The notes beneath the pieces are model-generated. The model was not told the DNA's origin. It was given only the letters and a program-made list of their open reading frames with translations, and ran no database searches. The translations under genes and the position numbers were made by a program. DNA of 64,000 nucleotides from a candidate division FCPU426 bacterium. Its GTDB lineage: Bacteria; Oederibacteriota; Muellerivitia; Muellerivitales; Muellerivitaceae. Shown piece by piece: positions 1 to 13,382 of this stretch. The DNA lies in NCBI GenBank assembly GCA_963796105.1, contig CAWCKJ010000002.1:160001-224000 (forward strand), given 5' to 3'. Each line of letters begins with the position of its first letter. The first letter of the stretch is position 1.

Positions 1-2
1 TT

Positions 3-92
3 TCGGCGGTTGGGAACCAATGGACCAGGATCAAGAAGAGGATGCCGGTGGACCGGGAATTCGCCAAAAAAGTGCTAAAGTGTAAAATGTAG
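3..92 (+). CDS. 3' end of an upstream CDS truncated by the window edge
   Basis: Open frame from 3 (SAVGNQWTRIKKRMPVDREFAKKVLKCKM*) ends TAG at 90-92, same strand as the following gene. Confidence 0.5.
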   Translation, partial: SAVGNQWTRIKKRMPVDREFAKKVLKCKM

Positions 93-135
93 GCCTGACC
101 CCATTGTGGTGTGGGGGGAATGGAGGTTTAAATTG

Positions 136-873: not shown

Positions 874-907
874 TAAGGAAAATTAAAACTTAAACAACTT
901 CAATTTC

Positions 908-1139
908 ACCACAGGTTTCTTCGAAACCACATGCCGAACCTCATTTAAGCATTCAATGAAAGTTCGGTACAGATTTACTATAAATCTGCCCCTGCAATCC
1001 TCTCACTCGGCTGGTAGCCTCATGCGGCCTGTATAGCACCGATTTCTTTAACTGCTTTATGGTGAATCGGCGCAGAGTACACGGTAAAACATTCTCTTGG
1101 GTACAGCTAAAACATCAAAACAACTACGTCATCTCACCA
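908..1139. repeat. 232-bp multi-hairpin element, copy 1
   Basis: Near-identical to 1246-1477 (4 differences by eye) and similar to 4504-4736. Confidence 0.95.
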
Positions 1140-1245
1140 CATGCCAGCCCGCCATAAAACTAATAGGGTGGCTGGTATCATACCAATCTCCACATATGCT
1201 TAAAGGAAGATTGGCACAGGGACTCAGCTACTTCAACAACATTTA

Positions 1246-1477
1246 ACCACAGGTTCCTGCGGAACCACATGCCGAACCTCATTTAAGCATTCAATGAAAG
1301 TTCGGTACAGATTTACTATAAATCTGCCCCTGCAATCCTCTCACTCGGCTGGTAGCCTCATGCGGCCTGTATAGCACCGATTTCTTTAACCGCTTTATGG
1401 TGAATCGGCGCAGAGTACACGGTAAAACATTCTCTTGGGTACAGCTAAAACATCAAAACAACTACGTCATCTCACCA
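1246..1477. repeat. 232-bp multi-hairpin element, copy 2
   Basis: Direct repeat of 908-1139 at offset 338. Confidence 0.95.
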
Positions 1478-1642
1478 TCCCACTATGCTCTATGAGCTTC
1501 GATGGACAGGCAGCTTCAGATCGTGACAAGAGCATGGCTCTTGCGCCCTGCGGTCTTTATGGCGCATCCAAAGGCCTCGGAAAAATGGATTTTCCCGAAG
1601 GCCGTCGGTTACGCCATAGTACACGATCTATACATAACCTCT

Positions 1643-1768
1643 AACCTCTGAAAAAGTCGGCCATCGCCTCCTTTTTCAGAAAACAAATTATGGAAACCCC
1701 ACGATTTCCTGCGGAAATCTTTGGGGTCGAAACCTCTGTTGGCCGCTTTTAATAGTTTTTCAGAGGTT
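1643..1768. mobile_element. MITE-like element with 13-bp terminal inverted repeats
   Basis: AACCTCTGAAAAA (1643-1655) ... TTTTTCAGAGGTT (1756-1768); internal hairpin GATTTCC-TGC-GGAAATC; no ORF. Confidence 0.6.
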
Positions 1769-1789
1769 TCAACCTTTTAAATCTTCTAC

Positions 1790-2003
1790 TGTGATGCGTT
1801 AGCACTGTGGTTCCCGTAGGAACCTGTACCGATCATCCATAAAAATTTAGAGAGATCGGCACTATACCAGCCCCCATATCAGCCTTATGGAAGGCTGGCA
1901 TGTGGTTAATCTGTTTATCCCCTGCATCCCCTGAATCCCAGCTAAGATACTTTTTTTTCCTGTGTTGCGTTAGCACTGTGGTTCTGTAAGAACCCGTGGT
2001 GAA
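1790..2003. repeat. Inverted cluster of the same hairpin modules
   Basis: TGCGTTAGCACTGTGGTTC occurs twice (~1796, ~1966); GGTTYY/RRAACC hairpins at 1809-1824 and 1980-1994; TACC..GGCA palindromes at 1827-1861 and 1865-1900. Confidence 0.85.
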
Positions 2004-2095
2004 TCCGGGCATTGGCGGAAACCTTTGTTCCCCCAGTGGAAAGTTGTACAATGATTTTGATGGTTTTGGTGGTTGAAAATCGGAAAGGGGAAGCC

Positions 2096-2302
2096 ATGCG
2101 ACAAGTTCTTATTTACCCAGGAGAAGACGGTTATTGGGTGGCTGAATGTCCCAGCCTTCCGGGCTGTATTAGCCAAGGAAAGACACGGGAAAAAGCGATT
2201 CAAAACATCAAGGAAGCCATTGAAGGTTATATCGCCTCATTGAAAGACGACCATATCAGCATTCCCAAGGAACATTTCGAGGCCATGTTAGTAGCCATAT
2301 GA
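2096..2302 (+). CDS. hicB: HicB-family antitoxin (short, no DNA-binding domain)
   Basis: EDGYWVAECPSLPGCISQGKTREKAIQNIKEAI signature. Confidence 0.9.
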   Translation: MRQVLIYPGEDGYWVAECPSLPGCISQGKTREKAIQNIKEAIEGYIASLKDDHISIPKEHFEAMLVAI

Positions 2303-2520
2303 GTAAACTCCCCCGTTTATCGGGAAGGGAATGCGTTCAGGCACTTTCCAAAGTCGGCTATGTTTTTGTCCGGCAACATTCTTCCCATATCATCCTCCGC
2401 CGTAAAGAACCCTTTTCACAATTGACAGTGCCGGACCACAAGGAATTGGACCGAGGCACACTCCGCGCGATCATCCGGCAAGCTGGTTTGCAGGTGGAGG
2501 GTTTTACAAAATTATCATAA
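2299..2520 (+). CDS. hicA: HicA-family mRNA interferase toxin
   Basis: RQHSSHIIL...TVPDHKELDRGTLRAIIRQAG; ATGA overlap with hicB. Confidence 0.9.
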   Translation: MSKLPRLSGRECVQALSKVGYVFVRQHSSHIILRRKEPFSQLTVPDHKELDRGTLRAIIRQAGLQVEGFTKLS

Positions 2521-2647
2521 AAACCGTGTCTTAAAATCTGCTTCTTCGCCGCCAACCTGCCTTGATTAGTTCTGCGGACTATCGATTGCACTGCCACTCG
2601 AAGCGTTGGGTGCGGACTGCTTTATACAAGTTTTGGTTTGGAGATGA

Positions 2648-3964
2648 ATGAATAAGGCCCAAAACACCGCCGCGGGGTTCCTTGTAAAGTCCCTCGCGAG
2701 CCTGCTATCCAAGAAGCAGATGCTCAACAAGGCCGCCCTGATGACGGGGGCCAAGGTCCTGGGCATGGGCATCGGGGCGGCGGGAACCATCTACGCGGCC
2801 AGGTGCCTGGGGCCCCGCAGCCTGGGACTGTCGGGAATGGTCCAGAACATCGCGGGGCAGGGCATGCTCGCCACGGAATTCATCTCCACCACGGTCCTGA
2901 TCCGCGAGTACAAGAACGCCAGGGACGCCGGGGACAGGGACAGGATCGTCCAGGCCGCCAACGGCTTTTGGCTCCTGCCGGGCCTGGTTTTCTCGGTCCT
3001 GGCGGCGTTGTTCTTGATCCTCAAATGGGTCCCAGGCGATTACCAGACCGCCGGCTGGTTTTTCATTCCCTTGATCCTCCTGAGTTCCGTCCAGCCGGAT
3101 TGGATCTTCCAGGCGGAGGAGAAACAGCAACACCAGTCGCTTTTCGCGCTCATCCAGCCCCTGCTGATGACGGGCCTCTACCTCATCTGGTTCAAGCCGG
3201 GCGCGCAGGCCAGCGCCGATTTGTTCGTGAAATCCTCGGCGGCGGCGGTGATGTTCTTTGTTTACTGGCGGGGAATTTTCAAGCTTAGCTCCCTCAAGGG
3301 GTTCTTCATCCGGATCGATTTTTTCAGGGACATGAGGGACCTGGTCCTGAAATCCCGCTGGCTTTTCATTTCAGCAATCGCCGTTTACGTCTACAGCACC
3401 CTGGAACAGCCCCTTTTGGGCTGGCTTTTCTCGGTGGAGGAGCTCGGGAAATACCGCACAGCCTCCTCCGCGACGAACGCGGCCTGCTCCTTTTTCAACC
3501 TGATCCCCCTCATCCTTTACCCGAGGTTCATCGAGTGGCGGAAAAGGGGGGAAGAGGTCCTTTGGGTGAGGCAGTTGAAGCTCACGGCGCTTTTCTCGGC
3601 GGGCGGGGGCATCCTGGCCCTGGGAGGGTTTTGGCTGATCCCGCTTCTTTACCCCTACGTCTTCGGGCCTTCCTTCGCGGGAGCGGCGGTGCCCTGCGCC
3701 CTGCTGCTTCTATCGGAAATCATCGTGGTCATCAGCGGGCTCTTCAGCTGGGGCTTGTTGACGGACCACACCTACGACAAATTCGTGTCCTCCACCCTGA
3801 TCGGCACGGCGGTTTTCTCCCTCGCGACGAACCTTTTGTTCATCCCGAGGTTCGGGATGATGGGGGCGGCGCTGGTGCATTTGGCGAGCGAGATTCTGAT
3901 ATTGGGGGTGTTCTTCGGGCTGGCTTACAGGAGAATCGGGAACATTAGGAAGAAACAGGTTTGA
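2648..3964 (+). CDS. Wzx-like oligosaccharide flippase (MOP superfamily)
   Basis: About 12 hydrophobic segments, ARCLGP, LGKYRTA, NLLFIPRFGMMGAA; glycan-locus context. Confidence 0.85.
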   Translation: MNKAQNTAAGFLVKSLASLLSKKQMLNKAALMTGAKVLGMGIGAAGTIYAARCLGPRSLGLSGMVQNIAGQGMLATEFISTTVLIREYKNARDAGDRDRIVQAANGFWLLPGLVFSVLAALFLILKWVPGDYQTAGWFFIPLILLSSVQPDWIFQAEEKQQHQSLFALIQPLLMTGLYLIWFKPGAQASADLFVKSSAAAVMFFVYWRGIFKLSSLKGFFIRIDFFRDMRDLVLKSRWLFISAIAVYVYSTLEQPLLGWLFSVEELGKYRTASSATNAACSFFNLIPLILYPRFIEWRKRGEEVLWVRQLKLTALFSAGGGILALGGFWLIPLLYPYVFGPSFAGAAVPCALLLLSEIIVVISGLFSWGLLTDHTYDKFVSSTLIGTAVFSLATNLLFIPRFGMMGAALVHLASEILILGVFFGLAYRRIGNIRKKQV

Positions 3965-3971
3965 AGAAATT

Positions 3972-4213
3972 CTTTTCTTTTTTTGTCCCCATCATTCAAA
4001 CCCTCATTTAAACAATGGGGTTTCGTTATAAAATGTATTTATTGCTGGCTCGCTCCACACATTCCCCTGTGGGTTTCTAGTTATCTGAACTTGCGAATTT
4101 CCTTTTAATATTCCTAGCGATAAGGCCTAGAGGGCTCCCCTTACGCTTATATGAGTTGATCCTTTATGCCGCTTGGGTGGGGTTTTCATGAAGGGGACGG
4201 GGTTTTTTAAAAC
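3972..4213. repeat. ~245-nt structured intergenic element, copy A (candidate ncRNA or non-autonomous element)
   Basis: Colinear with 7707-7952; invariant 29-mer TCGCTCCACACATTCCCCTGTGGGTTTCT; conserved stems. Confidence 0.85.
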
Positions 4214-4240
4214 AAAAGCAAACCTTACCTTGCGGCCTAC

Positions 4241-4315
4241 GAGACTTTGATACTGGGGGGGGTGTTCTTCGGGCTGGCTTACAGGAGAATCGGGAAAATA
4301 CGTAGAAAAATATAA
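4241..4315 (+). pseudogene. Orphan second copy of the flippase 3' end
   Basis: Encodes ETLILGGVFFGLAYRRIGKIRRKI* versus gene EILILGVFFGLAYRRIGNIRKKQV*; GGGGGTGTTCTTCGGGCTGGCTTACAGGAGAATCGGGAA is identical. Confidence 0.85.
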
Positions 4316-4345
4316 TTTTGAATTGAAGGAAAAAACCACATATCA

Positions 4346-4850
4346 ACACAGGTTCTTTCAGAACCACAGCAACAACCTTGATTTAATACGGCTAAAAAAT
4401 ATCAAAAGCAACAACTTCAACATTTAACCACAGGTTCTTTCAGAACCACAGTAACATCCTCAATTTGGTACGGCTAAAAACATCAAAACAACAACATCAT
4501 CTCACCACAGGTTTCTTCGAAACCACATGCCGAACCTCATTTAAGCATTCAATGAAAGTTCGGTACAGATTTACTATAAATCTGCCCCGGCAATTCTCTC
4601 ACTCGGCTGGTAGCCTCATGCGGCCTGTATAGCACCGATTTCCTTAACCGATTTATGGAAAATCGGCGCAGAGACTCAGCTAAAACATTCTATGGGTTGC
4701 GGCTAAAAACATCAAAACAACAACATCATCTCACCACGGGTTCCCGCGGAACCACAGCAACAACCTCGATTTAAAACGGCTAAAAAATATCAAAAGCAAC
4801 AACTACAGATAACCCCTTACCAAGGCACGGGTTTCTTCGAAACCACAGTA
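4346..4850. repeat. Tandem array of five GGTTYY-NNN-RRAACC hairpin units with A/C-rich linkers; includes copy 3 of the 232-bp element (4504-4736)
   Basis: Hairpins at 4351, 4433, 4510, 4739 and 4830; recurring GGCTAAAAA(C/AT)ATCAAAA(G)CAACAAC linker. Confidence 0.9.
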
Positions 4851-4914
4851 AGACAAACATATTCCGGTTTACCACAGGGTTTTTTTAACGCAAATGCAAA
4901 CCGGCATTTAAAAT

Positions 4915-5205
4915 TTATTTTGATTTTGGGGATAAATCCATGGCGCCGTGGACAACAGCCAAGACATCTATTTGATCGGATTTAATCCGGTAAAAAATGC
5001 GGTAGGGGCCTTCTATGACTTCTCGTATTTGATCCGCGTCAAACTCCGGTACTCTGCGGCCGGATGTGGGAAAATCGGCAATTTGTTTGGACCTGCCGGT
5101 AAGGCGATCGACCATCCGTTTAGCGTAATCCGCTGAATCCCGAGCGATATGGGCGTGGAGCGCGTTGAGATGGTCTTCAGCCGAGTGAGTCCAACGGACC
5201 CTCAT
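4915..5205 (-). CDS. RelE/ParE-family toxin
   Basis: MRVRWTHSAEDHL...FPTSGRRVPE...IREVIEGPYRIFYRI...VLAVVHG. Confidence 0.9.
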   Translation of the reverse strand: MRVRWTHSAEDHLNALHAHIARDSADYAKRMVDRLTGRSKQIADFPTSGRRVPEFDADQIREVIEGPYRIFYRIKSDQIDVLAVVHGAMDLSPKSK

Positions 5206-5390
5206 CCAGGAAGACCGTATTTGGCCCGGATATCTCCTACGTCTTTAGTAAGACCAGCTTCGCTATCGGAAAGCCCCCGCTCAATGGCTTCCAAGACATA
5301 GATCTTGTGCATTAAATCATCCCATGTGGCGTTTGAGGGCATTTGGTCAATCAGTTTGTGAGCCTCTTCTTTTTTCATGATCTTGGACAT
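5202..5390 (-). CDS. Cognate antitoxin of the RelE/ParE toxin
   Basis: 62 aa, KLIDQMPSNATWDDLMHKIYVLEAIERGL; GGGAGG RBS; ATGA overlap with toxin. Confidence 0.8.
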   Translation of the reverse strand: MSKIMKKEEAHKLIDQMPSNATWDDLMHKIYVLEAIERGLSDSEAGLTKDVGDIRAKYGLPG

Positions 5391-5508
5391 GGGTTGCCTC
5401 CCGCTTTCATAATGTAGTTTATCAAGATGAAATACCCAAATCAATTCGGGCTGAAATGATTGAAAAGGCCAATCCCCGCGTTTAAAACTATAAATCGAGA
5501 AACAGGAA

Positions 5509-7663: not shown

Positions 7664-7706
7664 TTCCATCTTCCCGCACTTTAGATAAGCAACCCACCAG
7701 CAAGAG

Positions 7707-7952
7707 CTTTTTTCTTTTTTTCGTCCCCATCACTCAAGCTTTCATATAATCCATGGGGATTCGTTATGCAAAGGGAGCACGCTAGTTCGCTCCACACATT
7801 CCCCTGTGGGTTTCTCGATATGAAACTTTTAGATATTCCCTTTTAGATTGCTAGTTGAAATAAACTTAGAGGGTTCCCCTTGCGCTCATTTAAAATTGTT
7901 CCAATAGGCCTTTTGCAGGAAGCTTTCATGAAGGGGCCGGGGTTTTTAAAAC
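7707..7952. repeat. ~245-nt structured intergenic element, copy B
   Basis: Colinear with 3972-4213; same 29-mer at 7787-7815. Confidence 0.85.
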
Positions 7953-7989
7953 CGACAATAAAAGATTTTCCAATACAAAATATAACGAC

Positions 7990-8802: not shown

Positions 8803-9201
8803 TCATGGGATGCAACGGAAACCATGCTCCCGAAAATGTTTGTCGAAGGTAAGGATCTCTTTAATCCCGTTCCGGCGCATTACCTCAAAACTGACACAAT
8901 CCACCAAACTTAAATCCCTTTTCTTGGCCGTCATTACGGCGGACAGCCCCGCGTTATGCGCTGCCTCGTCCACCCAAACCACCGATAGGATGGGGACGAC
9001 ATCCTTCTGGAAATCGGATAGGGCCGCGAGACCCAGCCGGTTTTGGATAAGGGAACAGGTCTCCAAAAGAATGTAATTAGTGCAAACTAGCGCCGGGTCC
9101 GTTTCCATCAGGGATTTCCACGACTGGTCCGCCCTCTCGTGAAAACGGTCGTTCATGGTTAAAAGGGCGATGAAAAAAGAGGTGTCGACAAAGACGCTCA
9201 C
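8803..9201 (-). CDS. vapC: VapC-family PIN-domain toxin
   Basis: VFVDTSFFIA...LSLVDCVSF...TFDKHF. Confidence 0.9.
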   Translation of the reverse strand: MSVFVDTSFFIALLTMNDRFHERADQSWKSLMETDPALVCTNYILLETCSLIQNRLGLAALSDFQKDVVPILSVVWVDEAAHNAGLSAVMTAKKRDLSLVDCVSFEVMRRNGIKEILTFDKHFREHGFRCIP

Positions 9202-9443
9202 TGGGCGTAATCCCCGGCCAGGTACTTGTCATGGCGCAGGGAAAGGTCGGAATGGCGGGAATGGAATTTCCCGGATATGGCGATGGCGCGTTCCCGCCTT
9301 TCCTCCGGACTCAGACTTCCGTTTTTCAGGTATAAATCAACCCCTTGGCGGATGGCCTCGGCCATTGAGATTTTTCGCTTCCGGGATAATTTTTTCAAGG
9401 AAATGGTTTGTTTCTGGGTCAATTGGATCTGGGTGCGGACCAT
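9198..9443 (-). CDS. CopG/RHH-family antitoxin (VapB-like)
   Basis: MVRTQIQLT...SMAEAIRQGVD...DLSLRHDKYL; GTGA overlap with vapC. Confidence 0.85.
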   Translation of the reverse strand: MVRTQIQLTQKQTISLKKLSRKRKISMAEAIRQGVDLYLKNGSLSPEERRERAIAISGKFHSRHSDLSLRHDKYLAGDYAQ

Positions 9444-9566: not shown

Positions 9567-10715
9567 CTAAATCAAAACACCTTTTATCAAATCTCGGACT
9601 TTCTCGCCCGAGGTTTTCCAATTCAACCTTTGGGAATATTCCCCGAAAGAGGAAAGGGCCAGCCGCTCATATTCCTTGGGGTCTGTCATGAGCCTGGTGA
9701 TGAAATCGCAATAGGCTTCGGGGCCGGCATTGACCGGGAAGGTTTGGCCGTTTTTGCCGTTGAGGATGACGGAGGGGACCCCCCCGATCCGGGGCGCCAG
9801 GGAGGGCAGGCCGAAGGACGAGGCCTCGGCGAAGACGATGCCGAAACACTCAGCCCTGGTCGGCACCACCAGGAAATGGGCCTGGGAGTACAAGTCGTCC
9901 AGCTTTTTCCGGCCCTCGCCCGTCTTTTTGGATAGGACTCCATGCCGTTTCACGAAATCAGGCAGGGGGCCTGGCGGCTCGCAGCCTACCACGTCCAATT
10001 GGGTCTTGATCCCGCGGTTGTTCATTTCCTCCGCGATTTTCAGGGCGGTGTCCCCGCCCTTCCAGCGCCAATTCCCGCCGATGAAAAGCAGTTTGCAGGA
10101 ACCGAAACTTTTGGAAGCGGTGATTTTCTTGACCATGGAAGTGTCCCGGCCGCATTCCAGGTTCGCCCCAAAGGGCACGACCTTCACCTTCGCTGGGTCC
10201 AGGCCGTAGTCCTTGACCGCGGAGTCCGCGGCCCATTTCGTGCTGAAAATGGCCAGGCGGCACTTGTTGAGGAACAATTGTTCCGTCAGGTTCCCATCCC
10301 TCAGGGATTCCGCCGGCAGGTTGGAATCATAGGCCGGGATGAACTCACCCCATCCGGCGAAGGTGAAATCGCTCCAATAGATAACGGGTTTGGTTGTTTG
10401 CAAATAAGAAAAAGGCGCGGAACCGCCGATCACGAAAACGGCGTCGCTTTCGACTTTCAAGAGGGCTTGATCCGCCCGGCGGCACAAATGCCGGACCAAG
10501 GGCGGGTATCGCAGCCGGTCGAAATCCCTTCGCTGGAAGGCCTTGTACAGAAGCTGTTTTGCCCGGGAAGTCAGGAAATGGAATCCCTCGCCCAGGTTTC
10601 CGATGGGGATGGTGGTTATACCGGCGCCGGTCAAGGCGCGGTTCATGTAATAGGCCGTCCCGGACCAGACCGACAGGTTCGAGGAATCGTCCTTGGTGAT
10701 GTAGGCTAAACGCAT
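9567..10715 (-). CDS. Glycosyltransferase family 4 (paralog 3)
   Basis: MRLAY...WSGT...VPFGANL...WKGG...RAECFGIVFAEASSFG; GAGG RBS before ATG 10715. Confidence 0.9.
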   Translation of the reverse strand: MRLAYITKDDSSNLSVWSGTAYYMNRALTGAGITTIPIGNLGEGFHFLTSRAKQLLYKAFQRRDFDRLRYPPLVRHLCRRADQALLKVESDAVFVIGGSAPFSYLQTTKPVIYWSDFTFAGWGEFIPAYDSNLPAESLRDGNLTEQLFLNKCRLAIFSTKWAADSAVKDYGLDPAKVKVVPFGANLECGRDTSMVKKITASKSFGSCKLLFIGGNWRWKGGDTALKIAEEMNNRGIKTQLDVVGCEPPGPLPDFVKRHGVLSKKTGEGRKKLDDLYSQAHFLVVPTRAECFGIVFAEASSFGLPSLAPRIGGVPSVILNGKNGQTFPVNAGPEAYCDFITRLMTDPKEYERLALSSFGEYSQRLNWKTSGEKVRDLIKGVLI

Positions 10716-10833
10716 GGAACCTCGGTAAAAAACAATGAAAAATGAACAATGAAAAATGAAAATCGAAAAGATTTCTTCTTTCACTTTTCGCATAGCCGCT
10801 CATTATCAATTGTTCATTATACATTTTTCATTA
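10716..10833. repeat. Heptamer inverted-array spacer, copy A
   Basis: (AATGAAN)n ... (NTTCATT)n; near-identical to 11984-12108. Confidence 0.9.
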
Positions 10834-11983
10834 TATTCTTCGTACCGCAGTGCTTGTGGATGAGATCCCTCACCTTTTTTCCCGAGGTTTCCCAGTTTAA
10901 CCGTTGCTGGTATTCCTTTAAGGAGGAAAGGCACAGCTTTTCATAGAGGTTCTTGTTTTTCATGAGACCCGCGATGTACCCGCTGTAGGCCTCAGGGCCG
11001 GCTTTGAGCGGGAAGGTCCGGCCGTTTTTACCGTCCCGGATGACTGAGGGAACGCCCCCGATCTTGGGCGCGAGGGAGGGAACCCCGAAGGACGAGGCCT
11101 CGGCGAAGACGATCCCGAAAGCCTCCGACCGGGTGGGCAGGATCAGGAAATGGGCTTTGGCGTACAGCTCATCCAATTTCTCCCGCCCTTGCCTGGTTTT
11201 CTTGGAGATGAAACCGTGGGGTTGGACGAAGCCGGGGACGGGGCTAGGCGGTTCGCAGCCAACGACATGCAATACAGTCTTGATCCCGCGCCGGTTGAGA
11301 AGCTCCGCAGTTTTCAAGGCGGTTTCCCCGCCTTTCCAATGCCAATTCGTCCCAACGAACAACAATTCGCAGGCATGGGCGCTTTTCCCCGCGATGATTT
11401 TCCTGACAGAGGAAGAGTCCCGATCACATTCCAGGTTCGCCCCGAAAGGCACGATTTTGACTTTCTTGGGATCGAGATCATAGTGCCGGAAGGCGGTCTT
11501 CGCGGCCCAATCGGAGCTGAAGACGACCAAACGGCATTTGGAAAGGAACTCCTGCTCCATTTTTATTTCGTCCCGGATCGTCTCGGAACAAAGACGGGAG
11601 TGGTAGGGATTAAAATCCACCAGGGAGGCGAGTGTGGAGTCCGCCCAAAAAACGATGGGATTATCCGTCCGGGAAAAGGAAAGGGGAAGGGGATCCACGC
11701 AAAAAATCGCGTCATAAGTCTGGGATAAAAGGGCCTTCTCGATTTGCCGGTAAAAGTGCCGGTTCAGCGCGGGATCGCCTTGCCGAAGGTATTCCCTGGA
11801 AAGAACAAATTTATAGAGGACTTTCTTGATTCCGGTGGATAGGTAATGCCAGCCCTCCTTCAGGCGATCGACCGGGAGGATCTGGAGACCTGCTTGCTCC
11901 AACGAGTGCCTCATGTAGAAGGCGGTGCCGGACCAGTAGTTGATATCGGAAGAATCCCCGATGGAAACGTAGGCTAGGCGCAT
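10817..11983 (-). CDS. Glycosyltransferase family 4 (paralog 2)
   Basis: Same motifs as its neighbours, RSEAFGIVFAEASSFG. Confidence 0.9.
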   Translation of the reverse strand: MRLAYVSIGDSSDINYWSGTAFYMRHSLEQAGLQILPVDRLKEGWHYLSTGIKKVLYKFVLSREYLRQGDPALNRHFYRQIEKALLSQTYDAIFCVDPLPLSFSRTDNPIVFWADSTLASLVDFNPYHSRLCSETIRDEIKMEQEFLSKCRLVVFSSDWAAKTAFRHYDLDPKKVKIVPFGANLECDRDSSSVRKIIAGKSAHACELLFVGTNWHWKGGETALKTAELLNRRGIKTVLHVVGCEPPSPVPGFVQPHGFISKKTRQGREKLDELYAKAHFLILPTRSEAFGIVFAEASSFGVPSLAPKIGGVPSVIRDGKNGRTFPLKAGPEAYSGYIAGLMKNKNLYEKLCLSSLKEYQQRLNWETSGKKVRDLIHKHCGTKNIMKNV

Positions 11984-12108
11984 GAAACCTCGGTAAAAAA
12001 CAATGAAAAATGAACAATGAAGAATGAAAAATGAAAATCGAAAAGATTTCTTCTTTCGCTTTTCGCATTGCCGCTCATTATCAATTGTTCATTATACATT
12101 TTTCATTG
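11984..12108. repeat. Heptamer inverted-array spacer, copy B
   Basis: As copy A but with one extra AATGAAG unit. Confidence 0.9.
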
Positions 12109-13258
12109 TAACTTTCGGTTTGCAGTGCTTGAGGATGAGATCCCTCATCTTTTTACCGGAGGTCTTCCAATTCAAGCGCTCCTCGTATTCCCTGAAGGAG
12201 GAAAGGCATAGTCTTTCATAGCGCTTCCTCTCTTTCATGAGCTTGGCAATGTAACCGCAATAGGCCTCGGGAGGGGCGCCGGGGGGGAAGATCTGGCCGT
12301 TCTTACCGTTATGCACGGCCGTGGAATTACCGCCCACGTCCGCGGACAAGGAAGGCAGGCCGAAAGAGGAGGCCTCGGCGAAGGTGACGGCGCAGCAATC
12401 CGCCCTGGAGGGAAGCAGCAAGAAATGGGATTCGGAATACAATGCGTCCAAAAACCTGCGGCCCCTTCCGGTATTTTTGGACAGGAACCCATGGCGCCGA
12501 ACGAAACCAGGCGTGGGGCCAGGCGGTTCGCATCCCACCACGTGCAACAGCGTCTTGATGCCGCGCTGGTTGAGAAGCTCCGCCGTCCGCACCGCCAAAT
12601 CCCCGCCTTTCCTTTCCCACTGAACCCCGACGAACAATAATACGCAGGGATCGAAATAGCGGCCCGCGATGATTTTCTTGACCGCGGGAAGGTCCCGGCC
12701 GCATTCCAGGTTTGCCCCGAATGGAACGACTTTCACCTTTTTAGGGTCGACATCATAGTGCTGGAGGGCGGTCTCGGCCGCCCAGTCGGAACTGAAAACG
12801 GCCAGGCGGCACTTGGAAAGGAGCTTCCGCTCCATATTCATCTCATCGCGGATCGTCTCGGCGCACAGGCGGGTGTGCTGGGGATAATAATCCACCAAAG
12901 CCGGGAAGACGCAGTCGTGCCAATAGACGACCGGTTTATCCGTTTCCAGGGAGGAGAGGGGAAGGGTGTCCACGCCGAAAACAACGTCGGGCTCTATGGC
13001 GGAGATGGCTTTTCCGGCCTGGCGGCTTAAGCTTTTAAGCAGGGAAGGGTCCCCATGCCTGTGATAATTTTTCCGCAGGAACAGTTGATAAAGGAATTTT
13101 TTCAAATGGGTCGTCAGGTATAGGAAGCCTTCTTTCAATGGACCGGCGGGGATGACCTCCAGTCCGCTTTCCCGCAGGGAGCGGTGGATATAGTGGGTCA
13201 AGCCGGACCAATCATCCTGATCCGAGGGATCTTTACGAGTCAAATACGCTAATTTCAT
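12092..13258 (-). CDS. Glycosyltransferase family 4 (paralog 1)
   Basis: MKLAY...VPFGANL...RKGG...RADCCAVTFAEASSFG. Confidence 0.9.
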   Translation of the reverse strand: MKLAYLTRKDPSDQDDWSGLTHYIHRSLRESGLEVIPAGPLKEGFLYLTTHLKKFLYQLFLRKNYHRHGDPSLLKSLSRQAGKAISAIEPDVVFGVDTLPLSSLETDKPVVYWHDCVFPALVDYYPQHTRLCAETIRDEMNMERKLLSKCRLAVFSSDWAAETALQHYDVDPKKVKVVPFGANLECGRDLPAVKKIIAGRYFDPCVLLFVGVQWERKGGDLAVRTAELLNQRGIKTLLHVVGCEPPGPTPGFVRRHGFLSKNTGRGRRFLDALYSESHFLLLPSRADCCAVTFAEASSFGLPSLSADVGGNSTAVHNGKNGQIFPPGAPPEAYCGYIAKLMKERKRYERLCLSSFREYEERLNWKTSGKKMRDLILKHCKPKVTMKNV

Positions 13259-13382
13259 ATGGAAATAATCCTTTGCGTCCGAGGCCAGTATCGCGAAACA
13301 CCCGGGGTCTAAGGGCAAATCTTAATAACTGTGCCAAAGGGTGTCGGCTGAGAAATACCTGAAATTCAAACAAGGAAAAAGG

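Follow-up and report, generated by a model that had tools for sequence, protein, structure and literature searches.

Twin hairpins in nested repeat spacers of a candidate division FCPU426 bacterium: REP-like elements with a likely internal target guide

The closest described relatives of the small repeats considered here are the repetitive extragenic palindromes (REPs) and their derivatives. REPIN doublets, their arrays and their nested clusters have been described (PMC3116915), and for the bacterial interspersed mosaic elements (BIMEs) excision as single-stranded circles and amplification in tandem or by a rolling-circle-like process have been proposed (PMC3333891). The REP transposase TnpA-Mb chooses a CA target by means of T2 and G4 of its GTAG tetranucleotide, and an altered tag retargets cleavage (PMC8266576). 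The evidence for retargeting of this kind comes from one REP transposase studied in vitro (PMC8266576). The repeats in question occupy two intergenic spacers (spacer 1, 875-2095; spacer 2, 4330-4900) at the start of a 64,000-nucleotide stretch of the genome of a candidate division FCPU426 bacterium (the window; G000:C2:160001-224000, where G000 is the source genome), and the one that matters most is a unit of ~75 bases made of two hairpins, the twin. Positions given without a contig label are window positions. A sister species (G001) was used for comparison, with 31 genomes of the family compared overall; the assemblies are incomplete.

A first-pass annotation of this DNA had seen the two spacers as crowded with palindromic modules, and these are found at the positions that it gave, most of them in many copies genome-wide. 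They comprise nine GGTTYY/RRAACC hairpins of 15-16 bases (the mini-hairpins of Table 1), TRCC..GGYA palindromes of 35-38 bases, six A/C-rich linkers and CCAC(A/G) motifs. In spacer 1, 954 of 1221 bases have at least three copies elsewhere in the source genome and another 136 are copied locally only; the corresponding numbers for spacer 2, which folds with z = -3.89 relative to 100 shuffles, are 352 of 571 and 165. Blastn with both spacers leads to 216 clusters on 12 of the 16 contigs. The inversion of 1790-2003, relative to 903-1477, is borne out. What had been read as the reshuffling of modules is rather the nested insertion of independent elements, combined with local duplication of the composites: each spacer sequence is made up of small elements inserted in one another, and five or more such elements, all repeated genome-wide, take part.

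The twin hairpin and its closest relatives

The twin consists of an arm A, three bases and an arm B, flanked by two copies of one dinucleotide. The 36-bp palindrome previously singled out is thus real, but as one half of this unit and not as a whole module. In a scan for hairpins of 33-43 bases, pairs are spaced by exactly 3 bases in 58 cases, by 2 bases in 11 and by 10 bases in one. A wider scan, with no term for the flanks, finds 127 intact twins in the source genome and none in the reversed genome, and a profile search yields 199 hits at 139 sites. Compensatory changes occur in the stems, and a non-Watson-Crick pair, G.T or A.C, is conserved at their position 2; the unit starts with TG and finishes with CA, its ends being imperfect inverted repeats of ~17 bases; and hairpin B is preceded on its 5' side by the bases A-T/C-N-G/A. 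Head-to-tail arrays of 7-8 copies are joined via the same dinucleotide.

Twins are spread over the whole genome, mostly between ordinary genes (of the 127 intact ones nearly all are intergenic), and do not answer to a duplication confined to this locus. The A/C-rich linker is restricted in that way: of 18 loose regular-expression matches 10 are recognisable copies, and C2:101-165 kb contains every one of them. Since its recognisable copies are all local, the composites that bear it were duplicated locally. The junction pattern of the twin recurs in 16 of 24 relatives from the same family and in none of 16 genomes outside it, and a looser pattern places twins in 23 of the 31 family genomes. The copy numbers by that pattern are 97 in the source genome, 60 in G016, 55 in the sister species, 25 in G044 and 21 in G043, and eight genomes have none. 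Metagenomes contain the twin in 119 stretches, and a genome collection contains it in at least 16, with neighbouring proteins that match proteins of the source genome; both of these scans required CA flanks and T.G, so that the copies found in them count for distribution only. Viral contigs gave no match to a stricter junction pattern. A search for gene-carrying twins with loops up to 2.5 kb returned only pairings of neighbouring copies, with no gene between the arms.

Comparison with known systems makes the twin a form of the REP/REPIN kind, distinguished by a natural internal guide-target rule. Like REPINs and BIMEs, twins are extragenic inverted doublets of hairpins that form arrays and lie in nested clusters, and by analogy they would work as a REPIN or BIME moved by an HUH enzyme would. 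They are nevertheless not members of either group, since they have no tag and flank no RAYT gene. Moreover, the putative guide of the twin is a single internal triplet common to its two unlike stems, and natural variation of this triplet goes with the target; the boundaries of the twin are exact, in contrast with the variable boundaries of REPIN/RAYT systems. The nearest layout is that of the tail-to-tail REP dimers of O. terrae GTAG-19, with 1-2-bp spacing, abutting hairpins, tags inside and heterodimers (PMC3733652, which also reports REP dimers inserted in other palindromes). Unlike the twin, those dimers have GTAG tags, and the portion of that paper available to us describes neither target duplication nor covariation of tag and target. 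Non-autonomous derivatives of IS200/IS605 (on the IS608 mechanism; PMC8266576, PMC3333891) likewise combine a pair of hairpins with a guide that pairs at the foot of the stem, and they insert in a polar manner; element X, which lies 3' of TAC within some twins, looks closer still to that type. In the twin, by contrast, a single guide lies at the centre where that type has one at each end, and the target is of 2 bases; the ends of IS200 in the source genome differ from those of the twin, no TnpB (PF07282) exceeds the cut-off in the 31 family genomes, and the counts show no strand bias of the twin, although hitch-hiking could mask one. Nothing closer is offered by the accessible part of a review of small bacterial repeats (PMC3184786), and Rfam has no match in the window at gathering score. 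The literature searched, which was mostly open-access, contains no description of the twin, and the family is apparently undescribed there. The earlier suggestion of an undescribed REP/BIME-like system is supported, with the addition that it is likely to be moved in trans on single-stranded DNA.

Some individual copies deserve mention. Divergent twin subfamilies stand in tandem at tRNA 3' ends (G000:C4:1278100-1278750 and C8:2000-2500, both on the minus strand); their arm A starts with CACCA, so that the tRNA end is restored. At G000:C8:3048 and C4:1545503 an insertion sequence (IS) of a 22-copy family sits in the loop of hairpin A, and those twins are therefore older than the IS. Opposite-strand twins at a start codon regenerate the ATG with their own end (L081:2501, L091:2501).

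The central triplet and the flanking dinucleotide

Identical dinucleotides stand on both sides of 121 of the 127 intact twins, which were scored with no flank term, and in 119 of these 121 the flanking dinucleotide finds its complement in bases 1 and 3 of the central triplet. The copies that obey fall into three classes: CA with T.G (n=105), CG with C.G (n=11) and TA with T.A (n=3). Counted as distinct sequences, 88 of 96 twins conform. The two exceptions include the window's own twin at 1142-1216, in which TCA stands between CA flanks; its near-identical sisters read TCG. When element columns are scanned against flank columns for mutual information over 148 insertions, the two guide pairs rank top; that scan shows no pairing of the element with any further position of the flanks, and the middle base of the triplet is free.

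The correspondence is not tied to one target. CG twins occupy several unrelated targets, among them that of the divergent subfamily at a tRNA 3' end, where CG goes with CAG; in another divergent subfamily CA goes with TTG. Further CG and TA cases come from the sister species, where one matched-flank copy is an exception. In 30 rows that were picked by hand and are rich in non-CA copies, the two guide pairs have 6 and 4 double changes, and 94.6% of their cells are paired, against 17-38% in slid controls. In a pooled set, which includes the copies from scans that imposed CA and T.G as well as one false positive, 255 of 259 obey. A tree of the arms has 5 changes for CG and 2 for TA. The central triplet is thus likely to be the twin's own target guide, as judged from these sequence correspondences. 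At the level of sequence, the twin has in common with the system of TnpA-Mb, a group 3 RAYT, that the dinucleotide answers to positions 2 and 4 of four bases at the hairpin foot, with CA included in the likeness. Because the pairing of the triplet is the pairing by which GTAG of a REP transposase picks CA in vitro, movement as a single-stranded dumbbell is likely. With its natural guide-target covariation over exact and countable insertions, the twin family offers a ready substrate for experiment and predicts a defined intermediate.

An ordinary miniature transposable element with inverted repeats (MITE) of a DDE transposase, with imperfect inverted ends of 17 bases and a 2-base target duplication, is a very unlikely description of the twin. 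It would do justice to the TG...CA ends, to flanks that resemble a duplication of two bases and to the abundance of DDE elements in the genome. However, a triplet lying 35 bases inside such an element would have no reason to follow the target, and the insertion is polar; no IS with twin ends was found, and the IS30 copies near twins in the sister species have unrelated ends.

Insertion, proposed movement and the search for an enzyme

At one host site the numbers of filled/empty copies are 21/29 when the dinucleotide is CA, 2/6 when it is TA and 0/39 when it is AA (Fisher p 5e-7). Of 88 insertion sites 78 lie in repeated sequence; for CA sites taken as intergenic controls the number is 67 of 300. 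Of 54 twins in 36 fetched stretches of the sister species, 17 have collinear orthologous flanks in the source genome; all 17 sites lack the twin in that genome, and at 10 of them the composite as a whole, more than 150 bp long, is absent. The two species are too distant for exact cross-species empty sites.

The reading that we favour starts from what is observed, namely the boundaries of the unit, its stems, the match of triplet and flank, the filled and empty sites, the arrays and the differing sites in the two species, and holds it fairly probable that, within these nested spacers, the twin moves as single-stranded DNA by the action in trans of an HUH enzyme (Y1, RAYT- or IS200-like), with the triplet as guide. 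The strand would fold, the triplet extending stem A via the left dinucleotide or stem B via the right, with its middle base bulged. An HUH transposase supplied in trans would cut and rejoin at C|A, and two cuts and one join would free a covalently closed single-stranded dumbbell, which would re-enter at a matching dinucleotide with a preference for the ends of other repeats. Arrays could arise from rolling-circle-type copying or from later slippage, and composites of host ends and insertions were then duplicated locally.

Several points weigh against this reading. The twin has no GTAG, GTGG or CGTC tag. There are few copies with a target other than CA (the pooled set has 17, of which 15 obey), and the well-supported branches of the arm tree force just two origins of CG and one of TA. 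Some insertions have hitch-hiked with their amplified hosts, which accounts for part of the excess in repeats. Empty targets show no more structure than control sites do (p 0.67), which leaves targeting to hairpin loops unsupported. No bias of twin orientation is found relative to transcription (27:28) or to GC skew (28:36, the skew being noisy). IS608-type elements favour the lagging strand; hitch-hiking could mask such a bias in twins. Since the element is nearly two-fold symmetric, its active strand cannot be told from the other. Finally, no cognate enzyme for the twin was found in the source genome or in the 31 family genomes. Twins are absent from 28 Y1 loci that were fetched and from 14 further ones, and PF01797 has no match in 7 of the 23 twin-bearing genomes and a match in 6 of the 8 twin-less ones, counts that come from incomplete assemblies.

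The search for that enzyme covered a broad set of families. Searches with PF01797 (in the source genome and the 31 family genomes) and NF047646 and a six-frame scan for HUH motifs gave no cognate gene, and neither did PF02371, PF00239, PF00589 (5 genomes), PF07282 and PF01541. The Y1 matches in the 31 family genomes are TIRYT proteins of ~318 aa, IS200 types, an inactive Y1-like protein and a single RAYT (genome G024). The last (L325, G024:C218) belongs to a canonical REPtron, with a 198-aa frame between GTAG REPs that are unrelated to the twin, and is the sole REPtron among the fetched family loci. Linkage to a RAYT or TnpA(Y1) gene, which the first-pass annotation had put forward as a check, turned up no such gene flanked by a twin among the fetched Y1 loci. 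The frames within 700 bp of a twin were clustered for metagenome and relative loci (1418 in all), and no mobile-element gene recurred among them except IS30, which lies near twins at three loci of the sister species. Within 700 bp of a twin site in the source genome are 3 of 14 TIRYT genes, 2 of 10 IS3 and 7 of 55 IS1595-like genes, compared with 8.3% of all genes; the IS family names of multi-copy genes in this genome, such as IS3 and IS1595-like, are our presumptive labels.

The transposase gene that abuts the window needs separate comment. The statement that the window holds no catalytic gene does not stand, as its first 103 bases contain the 3' end of a Y1 (HUH) transposase gene (317 aa) with the right repeat. 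This transposase, with inverted repeats GGGGTCAG, matches the description of TIRYT/subclass 2.1 in the consulted parts of PMC6006769 and PMC3733652, and so belongs with the TIRtrons; the TIRYT family has 14 members in the source genome. Its ends are unrelated to the spacer modules. TIRYT is a possible mover of twins, though co-occurrence across genomes lends this no support.

Side observations on Y1-related proteins and TIRYT elements are as follows. A protein of ~107 aa with a Y1-like fold, lacking the HUH histidines and the catalytic tyrosine helix, is encoded at G000:C4:794779-795099 and in L317-L323 and L327; conserved in at least eight relatives, it is apparently a domesticated inactive transposase. 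Several TIRYT terminal repeats hold a 25-base hairpin insertion (in the source genome, for example, C12:332318, C3:665959 and C11:133277), and the same genome has solo copies of the terminal inverted repeat and TIRYT hybrids without the HUH half.

The requirement for a 2-base match could, alternatively, be that of a core-exchanging recombinase (IS110/IS1111, serine or tyrosine), the triplet covarying through pairing in a folded intermediate. This is unlikely, for all that the 2-base repeat is polar and forms a core common to element and target, that the circle junction would flank it with inverted arms of ~17 bases, and that IS110-type genes occur in both the source genome and the sister species; some IS110 elements, too, typically sit inside other repeats. 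IS110 (PF02371) is matched in 6 of the 31 family genomes, as against twins in 23, and three IS110 loci checked have no twin junction. Both serine recombinases found are large integrase-size frames. The core lies centrally in a mismatched region, where tyrosine recombinases would be expected to need an edge (PF00589 has 36 matches in the source genome, at family level). Nor do loop and target covary beyond the core, as a bridge RNA would make them do. A double-stranded circle of 77 bp would, furthermore, be very strained.

Beside single-stranded movement by an HUH enzyme as the preferred account, a bolder reading can be stated, which is possible but doubtful: that the twin stands for a new class of minimal transposon, a self-programming single-stranded dumbbell of 75 bases that parasitises the ends of cassettes, selfish and palindromic themselves (GxxExxY, GIY-YIG-type and others), and has a mover outside the RAYT and IS200/IS605 groups, for example a TIRYT that works on ends not its own or a strand-transfer protein as yet unrecognised. 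Should the enzyme be found, a unit of 75 bases for self-guided single-strand integration would rank with the smallest on record.

Host ends, cargo and the layout of the spacers

The common CCAC(A/G) junction, at which modules had been proposed to join, exists as a motif, but it marks something else: together with repeats of 9-base period it forms the inward-facing end arrays of GxxExxY cassettes (PF13366, PD-(D/E)XK), here without the gene. GxxExxY genes are present in 27 of the 31 family genomes; inverted repeats of at least 12 bases flank 25 of 31 fetched GxxExxY loci and none in a reversed control; and both GxxExxY loci of the source genome show end types seen in the window. The cassettes have inverted arrays of 8-9-base repeats, and their inward-facing ends are the same as the window's; in contrast to full cassettes, the ends in the window are solo or multiplied and are loaded with other elements. 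In spacer 1 they face inward about a gene-less middle and in spacer 2 they are tandem. These gene-less host ends are themselves present or absent between species. The mostly open-access literature searched contains no description of GxxExxY end repeats. Labels of GIY-YIG type, DUF559 type and four-helix-bundle type for other repeats are our assumption. In many family genomes GxxExxY cassettes fit precisely between neighbouring housekeeping genes, each with its own repeat dialect (L242-L270).

Between the CCAC repeats lie the mini-hairpins, of which the genome has 70. In 54 of them a GNA triloop is closed, a loop class whose stability in DNA is known (PMC13037366). It is quite unlikely that the elements of the spacers act in RNA, as stems for processing or stability, or that gene conversion has carried them passively along with their GxxExxY hosts, and that the guide-target rule is one of RNA folding. 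Mini-hairpins do lie in the direction of transcription by 32:13, most twins are in host repeats that were amplified after the insertion, and the host arms could make a long RNA stem. Twins, on the other hand, show no such strand preference; many of their subfamilies are found at the same host position, others at unique sites, tRNA ends and start codons; and 27 of the 70 mini-hairpins suit the GNA loop of DNA but not a closed UNCG loop of RNA. Nuclease-cassette ends, mini-hairpins and twins are three under-described layers of selfish palindromes, which the twin family joins. For element Z, a further component of spacer 1, no autonomous partner was found.

The genes around the spacers code for a TylF-family methyltransferase, HicB/HicA, a polysaccharide flippase, a ParE-family toxin and a polysaccharide deacetylase. 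As had been pointed out, each cluster of modules adjoins a toxin-antitoxin (TA) pair, HicB/HicA in one case and, in the other, the ParE-family toxin with an upstream open reading frame (ORF) that has no Pfam match and is presumed to be the antitoxin. The proposal built on this, that the modules are recombination sites which acquire cassettes and load small TA-like genes into polysaccharide loci, would be of weight for the evolution of glycan loci if true; it is unsupported, and we regard it as extremely unlikely. Besides the contact with TA pairs, it has on its side that C2:85-165 kb has 15 of the 139 twin sites, where ~2 are expected, and that the host ends in full form do carry a gene, GxxExxY. 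But twin sites are genome-wide, and about half of C2:85-165 kb is not glycan genes, the first half being signalling, IS and TA genes by inspection; in the window the remainder of the glycan locus is twin-free, with none past 4670. The TA pairs of the window have modules on one side and are not bracketed, unlike the genes of an integron-like array, each bounded by a recombination site; and no gene lies between twin arms. Enrichment for TA is absent: 6 of 77 TA-like pairs are within 700 bp of a twin site, compared with 8.3% of 3525 genes, and 6 of 139 twin sites have such a pair nearby, by a test that used a crude gene caller, which misframed the ParE gene of the window, and a proxy based on size. 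Rather than cargo, the TA pairs are genes that neighbour the modules in permissive DNA.

Table 1. Features of the two spacers and their immediate surroundings (window positions)
Feature	Position	Strand	Remark
TIRYT 3' end (stop 92) and right terminal inverted repeat (74-103)	1-103	+	Y1 transposase, neighbour
Host end of CCACAG type (GxxExxY-cassette end repeat); mini-hairpin 914-928; target CA 930-931	903-931	+	
Twin 1: arm A 932-969, TAG 1034-1036, arm B 1037-1072, CA 1073-1074; X inside	932-1072	+	
Element X, 64 bases: branched hairpin and small hairpin	970-1033	-	on minus strand 3' of TAC within twins
A/C-rich linker, host-end flank	1105-1124	+	also 1443-1462, 4390-4412, 4472-4492, 4701-4721, 4778-4800
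Twin 2, uninterrupted; central TCA; CA repeats 1140-1141 and 1217-1218	1142-1216	+	
Host end; mini-hairpin 1252-1266	1241-1269	+	opens 237-base local duplicate of 903-1139 (98% identical)
Twin 3, X at 1308-1371	1270-1410	+	duplicate of twin 1
Low-copy hairpin	1477-1516	+	two other genomic copies, E<1e-3
Element Y, multi-branch stem of ~112 bases	1518-1629	.	30 loci, mainly in host-repeat spacers
Element Z, MITE-like, ~130 bp, inverted ends	1642-1772	.	45 loci
Inverted host end, mini-hairpin 1809-1824	1790-1826	-	
Twin 4, uninterrupted; central TAG	1827-1900	-	CA repeats on minus strand
End repeat of 9-base period, second GxxExxY-cassette family	1914-1945	.	
Inverted host end, mini-hairpin 1980-1995	1955-2003	-	
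HicB-like antitoxin (2096-2302) and HicA toxin (2299-2520)	2096-2520	+	neighbour, modules not bracketing
Three tandem host ends; mini-hairpins 4351, 4433, 4510; linkers	4330-4527	+	
Twin 5: X 4566-4629, TAG 4630-4632, CA repeats 4526-4527 and 4669-4670	4528-4668	+	
Further host ends, mini-hairpins 4738 and 4829, linkers	4671-4900	+	
ParE-family toxin (4915-5205) and presumed antitoxin (5202-5444)	4915-5444	-	modules on one side only

Other repeats in the window came to attention in passing. The terminal ~42 bases of the flippase gene recur 354 bases further on with 98% identity (3902-4299), and the ~240 bases between these two repeats are 74% like the spacer at 7702-7962, the genome holding just these two copies. 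A third TA-like pair of the glycan locus, a 132-aa PIN-like ORF with an 81-aa partner (labelled by inspection), lies at 8803-9443 with no twin near it. At 9567-13318 three tandem glycosyltransferase-like paralogues follow one another at a spacing of ~1275 bases, with AT-rich repeat arrays of 7-base period between them.

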